DNA of 64,000 nt from Candidatus Thorarchaeota archaeon (GCA_016933575.1 JAFGAR010000088.1:32001-96000); one strand, 5' to 3'. Positions 32,365 through 40,313 are shown, counted from the stretch's first letter. The notes: generated from the letters alone by a model not told the origin. Translations and numbers: made by a program.

Positions 32365-32379
32365 GTATTTGTGTAATAC
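32365..32379. promoter_or_regulatory. Palindrome GTATT-N5-AATAC upstream of cdrS (candidate operator)
   Basis: GTATTTGTGTAATAC about 40 bp upstream of the start codon. Confidence 0.4.
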
Positions 32380-32542
32380 CTTGATTCAGCTGATTGCAAT
32401 TGATTTTTTGTAGTTATTTGCACGAATCAAGTATCTCGATATGCGTGATTTAAAAATACAGAAACTCGAATCTGTTGCTTCTGACCCTAATATATATAGC
32501 TAAAAAAGGATTCAACAATGTTATGGTTAACTGACTCTTCAC

Positions 32543-35500
32543 TTAGCTATATTCAGTATTGGGCTGATCAAACTCTCGTTCTTCATCCCAATCCTCTTCA
32601 AACGCCTCATCAATCTCCTCAACTTCTGAGGACTCCAACTCTTCAATATGCCCAATGATAGCATTTTCAAGTTTCGAGTAGTCTGAGAGAATATGCACCA
32701 ACCTAAGATTCACAAGAGCCTCTGCATCAATCGAGAGATTGTATCTTGAGTTAGAATCAATATCGACAAACTGACCGCATTCTGCTAATAACGCCACATC
32801 GAATATTCCCATATCCTCATTCTCTAATTCAGAAACTCTCTGATTCTCTTTCAACCCATCCAGATGTATCTTCAGATACTTCTTGAAACCACGTTCTTTT
32901 TTCTGTTCATCCACACTGATTCGGAGGATGATATCGCCGCCCACACTTGTTTCCAAGAACTCCTCGCATGTTGAGGGTACTGCAATATTGTCAGAGAAGA
33001 ATGTTGAACGATGAATGAGGGGCTTGAGCACAGAGAGATCGTAGAACTCGCGTTTTCCTTCCTTGTTCTTAACCATCATTTCGTCATAATCGACATCTTT
33101 CAGGGGATCCCACTTGAGGTATGTTCCTTCACGAGTCGCAAAATACTCTCCAGTTCTCTGTGGATATCTGAGAAATCGGATCACCTCGTCGGTGTAGGGA
33201 GTTTCCTTTCTTGCAATCAGCTTAGATCCCTCAAGCAGGTTGATTCTGTAGACTCTCTTCTCGAGATTGATGGTAAGAAGACATGAAACCTCTCTGATGA
33301 CTCCAGCCCATTCAACAGCCTCACGTAACACCCTATCACACTGTGCACGAACGTTCGAGGGAAGTGATGATGGCCTGTACCCATGGAGAGCAAGGAGGGT
33401 TTCAGGCAAAGGTTCTGACAACCGTATCCATCGTACTGGCAGGCTCTTCTCCTTTGGAGGGTTTCCATACTCGAATACTCCAGCAAACGTCCATTCTTTG
33501 CCATCCTCTCCTTCACTCTTTATGTAAAGCACCTGTTGCCGGCTCACTTCGAGAAGGATAATGGGCAGTTCATCCCATCCCTCTCTTGATAGTGCAGTGG
33601 TCGCTTCAGCCTTAGTCTGTTCAGGGTCAATCACACAACGGTACCAACTATAAGGAAGGTATGCACTCATCTGACCTTCAACTAGCCCTCCGTACATAGT
33701 GTTCTTCAAGGATGGAAACAACAACCAGATGGGTCCTCCCTCACTCCCTTCTCGCCATAGCAGTTGTCCGAATCGTTCTATAAATCTCGGTCTACCTGAT
33801 GATGTCATCTTCTTCATCTGCTTCGCCCTCCATTGGAGATTCTTGTGTATTGCCTGAAAGTCGTATCGATATTCAAAGTCGTTATCATCCTCCGGTCTAA
33901 AGCCCATCTGGTGGAATTGCCATCTAGCAACAGCAGACCATAAGTCAATGCAAGATGGTGACTCTACATCTCTGAAGATATTTTCCGCTACCGAAAGTAC
34001 TGCGAGAAAGAGGTTCATCCCATAGATCTCTAGAAGCTCGACATTGTGACTCTGAGCAAGTCTGAGAGATCTCTGATTGTCTAAGTTTAATAGGCTTCCA
34101 AGACTCAGCCGAGTATTTGATAGGAGCCTCCAGAGAAGCCTGGGTTCAGTTCTTCGTAGTAGTGCATCTTTCACTTGAGTCAAAGTATTGAGTAGAATTT
34201 CATCATCACATGATTGATAATCATTGCATTCACAGATGCTGATGATATCTTGATACAATGAAAAGAGCGAGTTGCGCAACGATGTTCTATCCATCAGAAA
34301 GGTTGCAGCATAGAGCAGTCTATGAATCTCTCTTCTTCTCGTATTGGTGGTATCGATATGTGATGATTTCGTAGAATAATTGAGAGGAGGTCTACGAGTG
34401 ATAGTGACTTGCTGTTCATGCTGTTCATCATGCTCTTTGTGAATCCAGCCCCTTGTAATTCGATCAGCACCAACATGGATTCCTTGATGGCATTTTCCAA
34501 GTCTGTTTGGATGAGGTGGCGGTTGCATCAGGTCAAGATGCAACCTACTGGTCAGACTTGGCTGAGTCCTCATACTATCCACAGGATGGTAAGCTGTTTT
34601 CCAATCCTCACTGACATCATCTATCTCAATTTCATTTGTCTGCTCTAGTCTTGGTCTACACAGACTAGGTATCAGACTGGCTGCTCTCTCTTTGATTGTA
34701 TTCAGGCTCTCTCTACCAATCATGTTGCATCGAACCTGAATTGAGGCGCTATGAAACGATCTTCCGTACATGTCCTGTTGTTGGTTCAAAGCTCCAGATT
34801 GTTTACCCACTTCGACATTGAAACTCTGTGTTGCCGCCGCACTGAATTTGCGAGTCCAGCCTCTGAGATGTGGAACACAAATCACAGTTGTCCATGGTTG
34901 GTTATCTATAGGGAGGTCCTGAACGATGACTCGACTCTCATCATATTGGGGGGTTAACCATCCCATCTCTCGCGGAACTGTGGGAAGATTCCAGATTATC
35001 TCATCTACAAGTTGTCTTCGCGGCGAATTATAGTACAGAGGATTCACACACGGTCGCTGGTAGGTCTTGTTCATCTCAGGATGATTCACACCACTATCGA
35101 CCCATATCAATTCAGAGGCAAAGTCCTTCAAGATTTGGAGTAGTGACAATTCAAGTATCTGCAGACTATTTCTACGACCAACAGGTACCATACTCTCAAG
35201 GTCTGGCCAACCATCTACAATGATAATTCGTTCTCCGGATTCTTTGAGGAACATAGACTTGATTCTAGCATGGAAATCCTTCAGTCCTGAAGACCCATTG
35301 GCAAAAATCAGATTATCTGTTTCTTTTTGGAGGTCTATAAAATGTACGCGCTTGAGAACGCCGCTGAGTCTGATATACTCCAACTGACTGATTAGTCCTC
35401 TCTTTCGGAGATTACCAAGTCCGAATCTCATATTGACAAGTTTCTCAGTCGAATAGTCACCAAGAAAATCCATCCAGAAGAGAGATGGACTAGAAGTTAC

Positions 35501-37390
35501 AGTTTCTGCTAATTCAGCGAGATGATTCAACAGGTGCCAGTTTTTAGCCAGCCATGCGGCACTCTTGCCAGAGGTTGTTGGTGAAGAAACAGAGATGTAT
35601 TGAGTAAAGAAGAAACCATCCTCTACTCGTTCTGCAAAAGGGTCTTCATTTTGTGCGTTCTTGGTGGGGACAATGCTTCTCAGGAGATGCTCAGGACCTT
35701 GAGCTGGTGTCATTGTGATAGCGATGCGCGGTACTGTTCCATTAATAGTCGTACACTCAAACTTGAGTGTCTTCCATTGACCACGAAATTCTCCTTCCAT
35801 TAGCTTCGTGGCCAGTTGGTCGATGAGTTGGTCAAAAGCCTTCTTCGTTACTTTAAAGCCCTGGAATGTGTCAAGAGTTACAACTCCCTTCCAGACACGT
35901 TTTGGTGCCAGCGGATTGTTGACAAGGGTATTGAATTCGGTAAGTAGTATTCGCTCGTATTCATCTAACTGGTCAAGATGGGACTTTGGAGGTTTGGAAC
36001 CTAATACTGCATTCCATTCAGAATCCGTAAGACGCTCTTTCCAGGAATGGAGTACTGGAACGTAGACGTCCTTCTTCCTAGTTCGAGGTTTCATTCCATA
36101 GATATTGAAGTTGAATCCTCCTTTCGTCTTTACTTCAAGAATCATAACAGGAGTCCAGATGTACTGCCCTGCACCTCTCAATATTCGTGCAAAAAGTACA
36201 AGATCTATCTTTCCAGCTCCCTGATCCCCAACGACAGGAACCTCCGCCAGATATTGTATTCCAGACGGATTCTGCAGAAATTCATCGCCTGCAAAGACAA
36301 CCTCTCTCAGAGATTTTGGGTGGCAGAACCCTGAGAGGAGCACTCTGTGCCAGTCATTCCCTTCTCTTTGTGTCTTCTTTGTAATCTCTTCGAAGAATTT
36401 TGAGGTTTCTTTACCTGTGATAATTCCATTTCGAATATGACCAAGGACAACCTCACCCCGCTCTCTGACATATTCCTCTTCTGAAGACTCCAGAGTCGTT
36501 TCGACTCTCTTTTTTAGAAATTCAACATCAAGGCCTGTTGGAGGAGTCTCTATTTGCTTGCTAATGCTCTCACTTATTCCACTCTTATCACCGAAATGAG
36601 TCCTGATTTCAAGTACAATCTTGCTAAGTTCTTTATCCGCATCAGGATGGAAGTTCTTTCGACCAACTTTACCTTGTGTGTAGACCCAATCGAGGAATGG
36701 TATGAGCCTATGAATCAGTAACCGGATATATCTATGACACTCGCGGCGAGGAACAGTGTGGATGAAGCATTGCCGACAGAGCTCTATGAGGTGCGCGCGA
36801 ATCATGTCAGCAAAGTCGAGGACGGGAAGGGTCGGATGCGCAAGGAGAACGCGCGGATTTTTTGAATTCCCTCGGTACCCTGCCTTCTGGTGAATTTTTA
36901 CACCCCTCTCCAGTGGTATTCTATCAGCTACACCCTCGGGAATGATATCTACTCGACCATCTCTGTATTTTCTTATCTGGTAGAGGTCTGGGTCTGGAAA
37001 ATAGTATCGAGGGACTAACACATCTCGTAACAGAGAACCCATATAGTTGAGGAGTTCATTAAGTGGCCCAACGGTCCCCTCTCTCCAGTTGTAAACCCGT
37101 TTGAACTCCTTGTTACCGTATCGTTTTGTACTGTACCAGAGCATCTGAAGGTACAATCTTCTCAGAACAGACTCTCTATTCTGTATGGAAGAGAAGTCAT
37201 ATGAGCCCTGTTCTCTGCAAGACGCCCATTCAGTACGCGCAACTTCCCAGTTGCACCTGATCTGTTCATAGAAAACGTTCGTCAGGTCGTTCTTTCTTTT
37301 GTAGGAAAGCCTGACTAAGGCTGATAGTCCTGAGTATATTGCATCTGCCAGAACCTCATTCGGTCGGATTTCTTGGACTTTTCGCCCCAA
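32543..37390 (-). CDS. Large protein (1615 aa) with a RecB/Cas4-like PD-(D/E)XK nuclease domain and a putative P-loop region
   Basis: GNDWH...AEVPV...GKIDLV...ILEVKT...QLDEY, then SSPTTSGKS and RIIIVDG. Confidence 0.75.
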   Translation of the reverse strand: MGRKVQEIRPNEVLADAIYSGLSALVRLSYKRKNDLTNVFYEQIRCNWEVARTEWASCREQGSYDFSSIQNRESVLRRLYLQMLWYSTKRYGNKEFKRVYNWREGTVGPLNELLNYMGSLLRDVLVPRYYFPDPDLYQIRKYRDGRVDIIPEGVADRIPLERGVKIHQKAGYRGNSKNPRVLLAHPTLPVLDFADMIRAHLIELCRQCFIHTVPRRECHRYIRLLIHRLIPFLDWVYTQGKVGRKNFHPDADKELSKIVLEIRTHFGDKSGISESISKQIETPPTGLDVEFLKKRVETTLESSEEEYVRERGEVVLGHIRNGIITGKETSKFFEEITKKTQREGNDWHRVLLSGFCHPKSLREVVFAGDEFLQNPSGIQYLAEVPVVGDQGAGKIDLVLFARILRGAGQYIWTPVMILEVKTKGGFNFNIYGMKPRTRKKDVYVPVLHSWKERLTDSEWNAVLGSKPPKSHLDQLDEYERILLTEFNTLVNNPLAPKRVWKGVVTLDTFQGFKVTKKAFDQLIDQLATKLMEGEFRGQWKTLKFECTTINGTVPRIAITMTPAQGPEHLLRSIVPTKNAQNEDPFAERVEDGFFFTQYISVSSPTTSGKSAAWLAKNWHLLNHLAELAETVTSSPSLFWMDFLGDYSTEKLVNMRFGLGNLRKRGLISQLEYIRLSGVLKRVHFIDLQKETDNLIFANGSSGLKDFHARIKSMFLKESGERIIIVDGWPDLESMVPVGRRNSLQILELSLLQILKDFASELIWVDSGVNHPEMNKTYQRPCVNPLYYNSPRRQLVDEIIWNLPTVPREMGWLTPQYDESRVIVQDLPIDNQPWTTVICVPHLRGWTRKFSAAATQSFNVEVGKQSGALNQQQDMYGRSFHSASIQVRCNMIGRESLNTIKERAASLIPSLCRPRLEQTNEIEIDDVSEDWKTAYHPVDSMRTQPSLTSRLHLDLMQPPPHPNRLGKCHQGIHVGADRITRGWIHKEHDEQHEQQVTITRRPPLNYSTKSSHIDTTNTRRREIHRLLYAATFLMDRTSLRNSLFSLYQDIISICECNDYQSCDDEILLNTLTQVKDALLRRTEPRLLWRLLSNTRLSLGSLLNLDNQRSLRLAQSHNVELLEIYGMNLFLAVLSVAENIFRDVESPSCIDLWSAVARWQFHQMGFRPEDDNDFEYRYDFQAIHKNLQWRAKQMKKMTSSGRPRFIERFGQLLWREGSEGGPIWLLFPSLKNTMYGGLVEGQMSAYLPYSWYRCVIDPEQTKAEATTALSREGWDELPIILLEVSRQQVLYIKSEGEDGKEWTFAGVFEYGNPPKEKSLPVRWIRLSEPLPETLLALHGYRPSSLPSNVRAQCDRVLREAVEWAGVIREVSCLLTINLEKRVYRINLLEGSKLIARKETPYTDEVIRFLRYPQRTGEYFATREGTYLKWDPLKDVDYDEMMVKNKEGKREFYDLSVLKPLIHRSTFFSDNIAVPSTCEEFLETSVGGDIILRISVDEQKKERGFKKYLKIHLDGLKENQRVSELENEDMGIFDVALLAECGQFVDIDSNSRYNLSIDAEALVNLRLVHILSDYSKLENAIIGHIEELESSEVEEIDEAFEEDWDEEREFDQPNTEYS

Positions 37391-37646
37391 GCAGACTCCT
37401 CGGGGGCAATTTCATAATTTTATTTATAAGTAATTCTATCTTAATTGGAATTCTTTTTTTATAATATAAAGTTCTCATAATACCTTTTTTGAAATTTTAA
37501 GCAATAATAGAATTTTTGTTTAATAAGTTTATATAACTTGAATATGATACTAATACGAGTTCAAAAGACTCCTTCAGAACAAGAAAGGGAGTGAACTTGA
37601 CTGGCTCAGAAACGGGTCAGAAGTTTATATAACGTAGGCGAATGCG

Positions 37647-39323
37647 ATGGCTCGGTCCCGTGGAACAACAATCAGTGTAAAGGTCCCTATTAATTGGGAT
37701 ATCATGACGCAAAGGACTCAACAGAGGTTGAGGCAGATTGTTGGAAGGGATACCCGAGTAATCCGAGCGTTCCTTGGAATAATCGAACAACACGAAAACG
37801 AATTGCTAACCGGTCGAAAGAATAACAGAATTCATGATGGAAAATTAGACAAACTCACAATTACAGCGATTAGGGTCAAAGCTGGTAACGGTCAAAGGAT
37901 CACTGTTTCTCACGATATCAAACAGAGGTTCACAAGAATCTCTACGAATGAACTTCAGGAATGCAGGCAGACAGCGGTAGCGCTCTATGAGAGCTACTTG
38001 GCATTGAAAGGAAAAAAAAGATGGAGTCCATCTCGTCCTTCGAAGGTAAACTCAACTAGAAGAATACCACGATGGACGTTCATACAAAGATTCAAGCTCG
38101 AGCAGAATTCATCATCTGTTTCAAGATGGTGGCTCAATCTTCGGGACACTCTTGACTCTGTACCTGAAGGCCGCGTAATTCATGATAGATTATCTATTCC
38201 CCTAAAGGTGTCCCCCTTTCATATCAATCAGTTCCAACGAGGAGAAGTAAAGGCATGTCAAATCTTCACTGATCTTTCAGGGAAGTGGTGGGTAAATTTC
38301 GCTATACGTGTGGCCATTTCAGAGATTCCAAGTACCATTCATCCTCCTGCTGTTCTAGGAATCGACCTTGGTATCGAGAAGGCTGCATGTACGACCTTGA
38401 TTACACCTATGAAGGTACGAGAAACCCGATTCTTCAAACAGAGGAATAAGCTTGAAGTTATCAAGAATTACGACCGACTAGTGGCAGACCTTCAACACGA
38501 GATTTCTACTCGTATCAATACGACTCAGAATGCTGATGGTGTGCTTCAAAAAATAAGGCAGATGCGATATAAACGAGAAAGGGTTGCTCGTGGATATGAC
38601 CGAGTTCTTGTTAGAAACTTACTGGACTATATCGAAGAGTTGTCTGAGAAGTACACACTCTATGTAGCAATTGGTCGCTTGAAGAATATCCGAAATACAG
38701 CTCGAAAAGGTAACTTCAAGGGAAGAGAGTTCAGGGGAATGATTCACTCTTGGGCTTTTGCAAGAATCTCTGAGAGTCTAAAACATGGATTAGCCCAAAA
38801 AGGCTGGTCTGTGGAGGGAAAAGACGCGAGATTCCGTGCAGTTCCTGAAGCTTGGACATCCATCATGTGTTGGAAATGCGGTAGCAAAGGAGTAAGATCC
38901 AAACAGAATTACTTCAATTGTCCATCGTGTGGTCACAAAACAAATGCAGATAGGAATGGAGCAATCAATATCGCCGGACGTCTTATTACGCTCACAAAGT
39001 CATTGCACAATGTGAGAGGACTAGGTAAGTGGGAAACCTCTGTTCAGGCAGGGAAATACTCACGACCGAAAGCCCGAAAGAAGATGCCTTCTCAAGGGAA
39101 GTTCTTACTCTCCGAAGAAGATGAAACATCACATCTTGGAGAGTCCGCGGCTGTTCACTTTGTCCAGATGGACCTTATTAGTTTCAGTGATGGAATTAGT
39201 GAGGGCGATGACGATCCCGCCGTGGAAAATACTGTGGAAATCCTCTCTGTTGCTAGAAGTGATGCTCCGGCGTTAGAACAGGAGAAAGAAGCCAGGTCTT
39301 CAGGAGGGATTCCATCCCAATGA
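37647..39323 (+). CDS. tnpB: TnpB-like RNA-guided endonuclease (IS200/IS605/IS607-associated family) with a rearranged RuvC site
   Basis: RuvC-I LGIDLG (D240), RuvC-II position AIGRL (G343), VPEAWTS (E401), CxxC..CxxC zinc finger, RuvC-III NADRNGAINI (D435). Confidence 0.9.
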   Translation: MARSRGTTISVKVPINWDIMTQRTQQRLRQIVGRDTRVIRAFLGIIEQHENELLTGRKNNRIHDGKLDKLTITAIRVKAGNGQRITVSHDIKQRFTRISTNELQECRQTAVALYESYLALKGKKRWSPSRPSKVNSTRRIPRWTFIQRFKLEQNSSSVSRWWLNLRDTLDSVPEGRVIHDRLSIPLKVSPFHINQFQRGEVKACQIFTDLSGKWWVNFAIRVAISEIPSTIHPPAVLGIDLGIEKAACTTLITPMKVRETRFFKQRNKLEVIKNYDRLVADLQHEISTRINTTQNADGVLQKIRQMRYKRERVARGYDRVLVRNLLDYIEELSEKYTLYVAIGRLKNIRNTARKGNFKGREFRGMIHSWAFARISESLKHGLAQKGWSVEGKDARFRAVPEAWTSIMCWKCGSKGVRSKQNYFNCPSCGHKTNADRNGAINIAGRLITLTKSLHNVRGLGKWETSVQAGKYSRPKARKKMPSQGKFLLSEEDETSHLGESAAVHFVQMDLISFSDGISEGDDDPAVENTVEILSVARSDAPALEQEKEARSSGGIPSQ

Positions 39324-39455
39324 TAGCAGACAAAGCTCTTGCTGATTACATTCTCTGTGGAGTATGTAAGATGGCGACATCAAGTAAGGGAAGGGTAGAA
39401 CACAGAAGTTTCTTTCAGTTGAATTTCACTCAACAAGGGAGATTCAAATTGTATG
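39230..39455 (+). ncRNA. Putative omegaRNA/right-end region of the TnpB locus (boundaries approximate)
   Basis: Several stems overlapping and following the ORF end; a final GTTGA..TCAAC hairpin ends at 39434. Confidence 0.45.
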
Positions 39456-39521
39456 AATACTTGTAATACTCACCTATACTCAGATGAAAGATTCAGGTCG
39501 TATTTGTCCTTGTAATACTCA
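39440..39521. repeat. Two degenerate 33-bp direct repeats with a 49-bp period
   Basis: AGATTCA..T.GTAT...T.CTTGTAATACTCA at 39440 and 39489 (26/33 identical). Confidence 0.6.
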
Positions 39522-39557
39522 GATACTGATAATATAATAGCAAAAGAAGAGGAAACC

Positions 39558-39576
39558 GAGAGAGGTGACCTCTCTC
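39558..39576 (-). terminator. Hairpin downstream of rpl2
   Basis: GAGAGAGG-TGA-CCTCTCTC, with pyrimidine/U-rich sequence downstream on the minus strand. Confidence 0.6.
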
Positions 39577-39590
39577 AGTTCAAGAACTGT

Positions 39591-40313
39591 TTACTTTGTC
39601 TTGCGACCAGTTCTTCTTGCTGCAATATTACCGACTTTACGACCCGGAGGTGCGTGTCTACTCACTGTAGAAGGTCGACCAGGTGACTGATGTGACCCAC
39701 CACCGTGTGGATGCGAGGCTGCATTCATTGCAGCACCCCTGACAACAGGCCATTTTCGCGCTGTTCCACGAGTGTGGTGCCAGACTGCACCGGCTTTCAG
39801 GAAAGGTTTCTCAGATCGGCCACCACCAGCAACGATACCAACTGTAGCTCTGCATCGTGGACTGAAAGCCTTCTGTGAGCCACTTGGAAGGCGGACCATA
39901 GCCTTGGTCTTGTCTATGGATACTATTGTTGCTGTAAGACCTGAAGATTTCACGTACTTGCCACCATCCCCGGGGCTTCCTTCAATGTTATACACTGGAG
40001 TGCCTTCAGGGATATACTCAAGCATTAGAGTATTGCCATTTGCCAATCGGGCTTCCTCTCCGCTTTCAACCACTTGACCAACATATGCTCCTTCAGGAGC
40101 CACCATGTAGTACGGTTTTGTTTCGCCTTCATAGCGAATCTCAGCTAGAGGAGCACCTCGACCAGCCTCATGGAGGAGATCAATAATAGTTCCCACATAT
40201 GTCTTGCCAGGAGCCCATTTAGGATGTCTAGCAGGAGCTATCTTCTTGTGGCTCGGAGACCTCCATTGAGTAGTGCCTCGACCTTTCCGCTGCACAAGTA
40301 TTTTTCTACCCAT
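39591..40313 (-). CDS. rpl2: 50S ribosomal protein uL2
   Basis: MGRKILVQRKGRG, WPVVRGAAMNAASHPHGGG, PPGRKVG motifs. Confidence 0.97.
   Translation of the reverse strand: MGRKILVQRKGRGTTQWRSPSHKKIAPARHPKWAPGKTYVGTIIDLLHEAGRGAPLAEIRYEGETKPYYMVAPEGAYVGQVVESGEEARLANGNTLMLEYIPEGTPVYNIEGSPGDGGKYVKSSGLTATIVSIDKTKAMVRLPSGSQKAFSPRCRATVGIVAGGGRSEKPFLKAGAVWHHTRGTARKWPVVRGAAMNAASHPHGGGSHQSPGRPSTVSRHAPPGRKVGNIAARRTGRKTK

Follow-up and report, generated by a model that had tools for sequence, protein, structure and literature searches.

An alternative-glutamate TnpB with a predicted overlapping omegaRNA and Cas1-like partner in an inserted cassette of Thorarchaeota

The tnpB locus and its host

Here we report an analysis of a tnpB gene and of the cassette that carries it in a 64,000-nucleotide (nt) stretch of DNA from Candidatus Thorarchaeota archaeon (GCA_016933575.1, JAFGAR010000088.1:32001-96000), hereafter called the window, with positions counted from its first letter. 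The tnpB open reading frame (ORF; 37647..39323, plus strand) encodes a protein of 558 amino acids, in which a core of WED, REC, RuvC and zinc-finger parts (residues 1-467) is followed by a disordered tail (residues 468-558). The gene is accompanied by a predicted guide RNA, or omegaRNA, that overlaps its 3' end and by a giant divergent gene whose product is predicted to begin with a Cas1-like domain. A sequence-only reading of the window had given the same ORF and the residues D240, G343, E401 and D435 exactly as we find them, and had proposed an Asgard host. The host is indeed an Asgard archaeon, since the Thorarchaeota label is carried by full-length homologues in the hundreds and by almost all of the 80 related genomic loci; the family was seen in archaeal metagenome-assembled genomes (MAGs) only.

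The protein has the motif order expected of a TnpB (RuvC-I aspartate, RuvC-III aspartate and a CxxC...CxxC zinc finger) and scores above threshold against the Cas12f1-like TNB domain of Pfam (PF07282; 46.9 bits, cut-off 26.3). In a sediment metatranscriptome of the same study, one contig of 160 nt matches the middle part of tnpB (window 38182-38341) at full identity; coming from one contig of one metatranscriptome, this is a weak hint that the gene is transcribed in situ. A second run yielded no contig, and none covered the RNA gene, which carries no information on a lack of transcription.

Rearranged RuvC active site

The RuvC-I aspartate D240 (motif DLG within GIDLGIE; codon 38364..38366) and the RuvC-III aspartate D435 (NADRNG; 38949..38951) are unchanged in 55 relatives that share 21-75% identity with the query, all codons given here being on the plus strand. 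The canonical RuvC-II position is occupied by a glycine, G343 (YVAIGRL; 38673..38675), and is a glycine in at least 90% of the relatives. An alternative RuvC-II glutamate, E401 (AVPEAWTSIMC; 38847..38849), lies six residues ahead of C408, the first cysteine of the zinc finger (C408, C411, C425 and C428; 38868..38930), whose last cysteine is kept in at least 90% of the relatives. The residues invariant in all 55 are D240, G242, E401, T404, S405, C408, C411, R417, C425 and D435; E401, D240, D435 and three of the four cysteines are also unchanged in nine close family members. A glycine at the RuvC-II position, a glutamate before the zinc finger and intact aspartates had all been noticed in the sequence-only reading, and both the residues and the alignment confirm them. 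That reading had named a lack of conservation of E401 as one of the outcomes that would speak against it, and the residue is invariant across these diverse relatives.

The pattern extends well beyond close homologues. Among 62 distant representatives (full-length proteins taken from 50%-identity clusters, down to an expect value (E) of ~1e-12), 58 combine a glycine at the canonical site with a glutamate six residues before CxxC, and three, all peripheral, keep the canonical glutamate. In a phmmer alignment with AsCas12f (8j3r), the segment 'yvaigrlknir' pairs with 'tiqmedltnir', which places G343 on the glutamate of 'MEDL'; as this is the catalytic glutamate of Cas12f, the canonical residue has truly been replaced. 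The spacing (158 residues between G242 and E401, six between E401 and C408, 13 between the two CxxC pairs and six between C428 and D435) is such that the protein fits the alternative-glutamate (Ealt) D{P}G regular expression of PMC10711439.

An AlphaFold2 (AF2) model built from the alignment of the 55 sequences has a mean predicted local distance difference test score (pLDDT) of 81.5, with residues 1-467 confident and the tail below 50. In this model G343 lies at the end of strand beta4 (residues 337-344), and strand beta5 (396-400) of the RNase H fold is directly followed by E401; a move of the glutamate from beta4 to beta5 has been described for rearranged TnpBs (PMC10691335). A phmmer search with residues 385-450 aligned 400-442 to 466-508 of the mimivirus Fanzor2 (9B0L). 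The two spans are equal in length and hence ungapped, so that E401 corresponds to Glu467 and D435 to Asp501, and ApmFanzor2, in its structure from cryo-electron microscopy, has Asp324, Glu467 and Asp501 as its catalytic triad (PMC11832414). The E467A exchange abolishes the activity of ApmFz2, and TvTnpB, an archaeal Ealt enzyme, shows activity (PMC10530073). We therefore assign the D240/G343/E401/D435 arrangement to the known Ealt RuvC site, and topology and homology would place E401 in the active site. In the core, the ratio of nonsynonymous to synonymous substitution rates (dN/dS) is 0.07-0.16 against the eight relatives with measurable dS, and such purifying selection fits an active enzyme. 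The protein is thus probably a catalytically active nuclease; the sequence-only reading had expected as much, and the invariant residues, the Fanzor2 alignment and the low core dN/dS support it.

An omegaRNA scaffold overlapping the 3' end of tnpB

Conservation among 41 loci runs from ~39010 to 39433 and drops off sharply beyond. It delimits a structured segment of ~420 nt (39012..39433, plus strand) that comprises the ~104 terminal codons of tnpB and the following 110 nt. Nearly all loci have the motif GTTCACTCA at the end of the conserved RNA, where the window copy reads TTTCACTCA (39424-39432). RNAalifold applied to 40 loci predicts 86 pairs, of which 36 show compensatory changes, with 97% of cells paired, versus 11-18 compensatory pairs and ~43% of cells paired in slid-partner controls; 65 of the 86 pairs fall within the tnpB ORF. 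The coding sequence bears the same mark: third-codon entropy is 1.27-1.44 bits for residues 1-450 versus 0.57-0.73 for residues 481-558, where all codon positions are alike, and dS exceeds 1.7 in the core versus 0.27-0.67 in the tail, whose dN/dS reaches 0.47-0.91. No Rfam family matched the interval 37300-39700. On these comparative data, the segment 39012..39433 is a predicted omegaRNA (guide RNA) scaffold that overlaps the 3' end of tnpB.

This overlap accounts for a tail of ~100 amino acids that is conserved across the family though predicted to be disordered in the AF2 model. The sequence-only reading had pointed to a low-complexity tail of ~110 amino acids; a tail of ~100 amino acids is real, but it is not low-complexity filler, being conserved and overlapping a structured RNA. 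It is a by-product of the omegaRNA overlap and not a noteworthy protein extension.

Divergent partner with a predicted Cas1-like domain

Upstream of tnpB, on the minus strand, lies a divergent gene for a protein of 1615 amino acids (32543..37390), the N-terminal ~255 residues of which (36626-37390) form a predicted Cas1-like catalytic domain. A homologue of this partner is found upstream of tnpB, in divergent orientation, in 33 of the 46 family loci, mostly at a spacing of 250-314 nt, and divergent pairing is shown by all three paralogous tnpB-partner pairs of the genome under study. Sequence searches of the partner (Pfam, NCBIfam, phmmer against the PDB, profile searches and the protein atlas) returned nothing informative. 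An AF2 model of residues 1-330 has a pLDDT of 86, and in VIA-align Cas1 or casposase structures take all 12 top places (Z 8.8-12.5, aligned over 150-197 residues), with unrelated folds appearing from Z 6.7. The partner residues E95, H185, D192, D195 and R198 are invariant and comprise a D192-x-x-D195-x-x-R198 motif plus a histidine.

The identities of TnpB and partner to the window copy are out of step between loci. They amount to 75% for TnpB and 37% for the partner at locus L010, and to 63% and 76% at L038; the mismatch was compared over L010, L012 and L048 versus L013, L038 and L077. The pattern suggests that modules have been shuffled between the tnpB-RNA unit and the Cas1-like gene.

Insertion site and mobility

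In four genomes of the same genus, rpl2 directly follows ftsZ. This empty spacer identifies window 32380..39499 as an insertion, made up of the inserted cassette and remnants. Copies of GTATTTGT(CCTT)GTAATAC flank the insertion at 32365-32379 and 39500-39518; another copy occupies 39451-39469. GATTCAA, which also occurs at 32509-32515, is the inner repeat. These flanking repeats emerged from the comparison with the empty sites, a blastn-short search around the window copy having given nothing convincing. Similarity to cassettes in other genomes covers only 32625-39432. A tnpB-only copy, locus L015, is missing from five genomes and has ATAGGTC at both junctions. The comparison of occupied and empty sites reveals short direct repeats at the junctions (ATAGGTC at L015; GATTCAA plus the 15-19-nt repeat at the window copy), and the histories of the sites look compound; IS200/IS605 elements insert without a target-site duplication.

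The number of matches per genome of the same genus ranges from 0 to ~21, and the genome under study holds three full copies. The Y1 transposase TnpA (PF01797) was not found in this genome (85.5% complete) or in five congeners with up to 21 matches, although absence from incomplete MAGs is no proof. The 13 of 46 loci without a partner sit amid housekeeping genes, and the 10 neighbouring ORFs that were scanned, at six of these 13 loci, include no transposase.

Several further observations concern the insertion sites themselves. Right past the end of the window element (39447-39518), two more target-like copies, GTATGAATACTTGTAATAC and GTATTTGTCCTTGTAATAC, are found 30 nt apart, and the DNA between them again holds AGATTCAGG, which points to repeated integration at the window site. 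The right ends of L038, L077, L089 and L057 stop 10-25 nt from a tRNA-Gly(TCC) on the opposite strand, and L038 and L077 have, past the stop codon of the giant gene, a second copy of the 3' part of the tRNA together with right-end-like sequence, forming a ~60-nt direct repeat of 87-88% identity. No tRNA was found at the window copy. The empty sites L191, L192, L195 and L197-L199 carry a right-end-like motif (GCTCACTGA; GTAATACTCAC) shortly before the insertion point, and the corresponding motif at the L038 insertion site is GGTTAACTAAC.

Element ends and candidate guide

An anchored comparison of ~85 right ends showed that GTTCACTCA is followed by 13-20 semi-conserved nt ending in AGGTYA and then by unrelated DNA, so the variable sequence of the family lies downstream of GTTCACTCA. 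In the window, the corresponding terminal segment (ACAAGGGAGATTCAAATT; 39434..39450, plus strand) ends in AGATTCA, the counterpart of AGGTYA, and is a candidate guide or element end. A search of this genome with the candidate-guide 20-mer that follows the scaffold found its own flank as the sole match at up to 3 mismatches.

On the other side of the gene, a conserved left-end module (TACGAGTTC...GGGTCAGAAG) with a proximal TATA-like box is located upstream of tnpB (37547..37633, plus strand), as judged from conservation across loci. The conservation common to loci with and without the giant gene begins at TAYGAGTTC. A direct repeat of 13-19 nt (A[TG]AANTTTAWAW plus 5-8 locus-specific nt) at 37523-37537 and 37619-37633 brackets a conserved structured module of ~96 nt just 5' of tnpB, and occupies the same positions in other loci. 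Co-variation of its two copies inside one locus is seen in all 14 giant-linked loci and in five of the 11 others, with a mean length of 13.7 within loci versus 9.8 for mismatched loci, a concerted pattern.

Stand-alone RNA units

Units of ~430 nt that match the RNA profile from end to end occur on their own. The genome under study has one such omegaRNA unit, L004 (C64:173886-174315), and some congeners have numerous ones (L176-L189), most of which keep an open frame of ~100 codons. All stand-alone units share a single junction, at which a left terminus of ~45 nt (AATTG TAYGAGTTCATATAC...) is fused to the start of the RNA (ATGAAAGGACTAGG). They are likely to be deletion derivatives that multiplied, although a function as guide genes in trans is conceivable. 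Near full units, extra copies of the terminal 50-125 nt of the omegaRNA are present at L031:1907-1959, L084:8095-8223 and L004:66-134 and 1084-1135, and the one at L031 follows its unit by only 42 nt, which gives the locus a repeat-spacer-repeat look.

Comparison with known systems

The closest parallels in the active site are the TnpB2 proteins (Jiang et al. 2023), such as TvTnpB of Thermoplasma volcanium, and the RIIr branches (Altae-Tran et al. 2023), which likewise have a glycine at RuvC-II, a glutamate six residues before CxxC, an intact zinc finger, both RuvC-I and RuvC-III aspartates, an archaeal host and a 3' omegaRNA. TvTnpB belongs to an IS605 element with a Y1 TnpA, whereas none was found for the window family, in which the partner is the giant Cas1-like protein; the window TnpB is also longer than the TvTnpB type because ~100 of its codons overlap the RNA gene.

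As to gene content, the aCas1-associated Asgard elements (Cas1H-Asgard-1 and -2; Altae-Tran et al. 2023, PMC10691335) resemble the window cassette in their Asgard host, a Cas1 homologue beside tnpB, flanking repeats and GTTCACTCA downstream of tnpB. Judging by this overall likeness, the cassette appears to be one of these already described elements. Two differences stand out. The Cas1-like domain of the window partner occupies the first ~255 of 1615 amino acids and is invisible to sequence profiles. Moreover, the aCas1-TnpB elements are described as having hypervariable sequence from a conserved T up to GTTCACTCA (PMC10691335), in contrast to the window family.

The best profile and fold matches of the protein are Cas12f (AsCas12f, OsCas12f) and the TnpBs of ISFba1 and ISDra2, which have the same WED-REC-RuvC-zinc finger order but use the canonical beta4 glutamate; Cas12f, in addition, works with arrays of clustered regularly interspaced short palindromic repeats (CRISPR). 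Asgard Cas1 homologues were reportedly described by Makarova and co-workers in 2020.

Relation to Fanzors

The sequence-only reading had taken the rearranged glutamate as a mark of closeness to Fanzors and had seen in it, through the relationship between Asgard archaea and eukaryotes, a bearing on Fanzor origins. Our data do not support either claim. With the family profile, AsCas12f reaches 134.6 bits, the TnpB 9nzp 122.8, Fanzor2 59.5 (less than half of the Cas12f score) and ISDra2 TnpB 41.6, and Fanzor1 stays unmatched at E up to 10. Foldseek places AsCas12f (E 4.9e-17, TMt 0.63), OsCas12f and ISFba1 TnpB (E 9.7e-15) at the top, with ISDra2 TnpB at E 7e-11. Fanzor2 comes 15th in the profile ranking and 21st in the Foldseek ranking, behind Cas12f proteins and TnpBs.

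The definition of pro-Fanzors combines a DPG motif in RuvC-I with Ealt, and these proteins are borne by IS607 and have a cyanobacterial host (Yoon et al. 2023, PMC10711439). RuvC-I of the window protein reads DLG; among the relatives listed, DLG or DFG is the motif in nearly all and DPG in none. Neither an IS607 serine recombinase nor a Y1 TnpA turned up around the 13 loci inspected. In viral contigs we found only distant TnpBs (at most 36% identity), almost all of them with the canonical glutamate, and nothing Fanzor-like. Fanzor2 (ApmFz2, 9B0L) has its catalytic glutamate and aspartate in the same place relative to the zinc finger, but it differs in its RuvC-I motif (DPG), in an N-terminal extension that bears a nuclear localisation signal, in its IS607-type setting and in its eukaryotic-virus host. 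An altered RuvC-II has been reported for two major clades and also for eight large branches, of which several are nearly confined to archaea (Altae-Tran et al., PMC10691335). Since Ealt is widespread and recurrent in prokaryotic TnpBs and DPG, the signature specific to Fanzors, is missing, the Ealt site of an Asgard TnpB is no evidence on Fanzor origins, and the Asgard host by itself adds no evidence of Fanzor ancestry.

Discussion

We consider it likely that the window encodes a catalytically competent RNA-guided DNA endonuclease of the TnpB type, with its omegaRNA embedded in the 3' overlap, as part of a mobile Thorarchaeota cassette with a Cas1-like partner. What the analysis itself shows is where the motifs lie and how conserved they are, together with purifying selection, a structured RNA, an insertion polymorphism and a partner with a predicted Cas1-like fold; what this reading would add is nuclease activity, a role of cutting in retention or spread of the element, and an integrase function of the partner. 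The RuvC triad would consist of D240, E401 and D435, with the glutamate supplied from the end of beta5 and a glycine left at beta4. TnpB and its RNA would cut sites that match the DNA beside the right end of the element, thereby favouring its retention or spread, and the Cas1-like protein would act as the integrase. The cassette would be specific to Thorarchaeota, its tnpB usually paired divergently with the giant Cas1-like protein.

Several points weigh against this reading. The protein falls below the cut-off of the NCBIfam model guided_TnpB (NF040570; 83.7 bits, cut-off 100), and the position of E401 in the active site is drawn from topology and homology. The Cas1-like nature of the partner comes from its predicted fold, sequence profiles being silent. 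The three full copies in the genome are only 63-64% identical and so give no sign of recent transposition. The right end of the element differs from a plain IS200/IS605 right end, and no hypervariable stretch was seen ahead of GTTCACTCA, the preceding 40 nt being conserved in 40 loci.

According to a first alternative, TnpB and its RNA serve the Cas1-like protein in target choice, or form a defence-like module with trans guide genes, rather than homing alone. This would fit the many stand-alone omegaRNA units per genome in relatives, the extra copies of the terminal RNA segment beside some units, the resemblance of insertion-site sequences to the element's own right end and the failure to find a Y1 transposase in six genomes. 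However, the one junction shared by the stand-alone units is simply explained by multiplied deletion derivatives, 13 of the 46 loci lack a partner, and the candidate guide of the window has no other match in the genome, and we regard such a role as rather unlikely.

About equally speculative is a scenario in which the cassette is a present-day intermediate stage linking a transposon with a CRISPR system. Here the Cas1-like integrase would insert the element beside a right-end-like motif (TTCACTCA-like), a short target would be duplicated, the duplicate placed after the scaffold would become the guide of TnpB, and the stand-alone units would be trans guide genes. If this were true, 'spacers' made by a Cas1 would be used by an alternative-glutamate TnpB.

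A third possibility is a domesticated TnpB that has lost its nuclease activity (TldR-like or otherwise exapted) and would use its RNA for DNA binding only, for example as a regulator acting with its giant neighbour. The canonical RuvC-II glutamate is lost, the genome lacks a near-identical copy, the distance to the partner stays fixed even where the partners of different loci are only ~25% identical, and exapted TnpBs are common (PMC10691335). Yet the whole clade keeps E401, D240, D435 and the zinc finger unchanged, ApmFz2 and TvTnpB are catalytically active with this Ealt geometry (PMC10530073, PMC11832414), the patchy copy number and the empty sites indicate mobility, and the candidate guide matches its own flank only, all of which makes a dead enzyme quite improbable.

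Finally, the Ealt position shared with Fanzor2, the Asgard host and the archaeal inheritance that Jiang et al. deem possible in general (PMC10530073) might be taken to make the family a close prokaryotic relative or source of eukaryotic Fanzors, inherited via the Asgard-eukaryote link, but this is highly improbable given DLG instead of DPG, pro-Fanzors that are cyanobacterial and IS607-linked, the low rank of Fanzor2 behind canonical-glutamate AsCas12f by profile and fold alike, the unmatched Fanzor1, the many branches in which Ealt arose, and the absence of serine recombinase or Y1 TnpA near the inspected loci and of close relatives from viral contigs.

Under the preferred reading of an active TnpB cassette, the family would represent a large set, with hundreds of members, of probably active non-canonical TnpBs whose RNA scaffold now has defined bounds (~420 nt, ending in GTTCACTCA). 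Ealt enzymes have been reported to act without collateral cleavage, which makes them somewhat attractive for genome editing. Of greater interest are two loose ends, the mechanism by which the cassette integrates and the stand-alone RNA units. The pairs of occupied and empty sites, together with the predicted fold of the Cas1-like partner, make the proposed mechanism of transposition by a Cas1 homologue directly testable.

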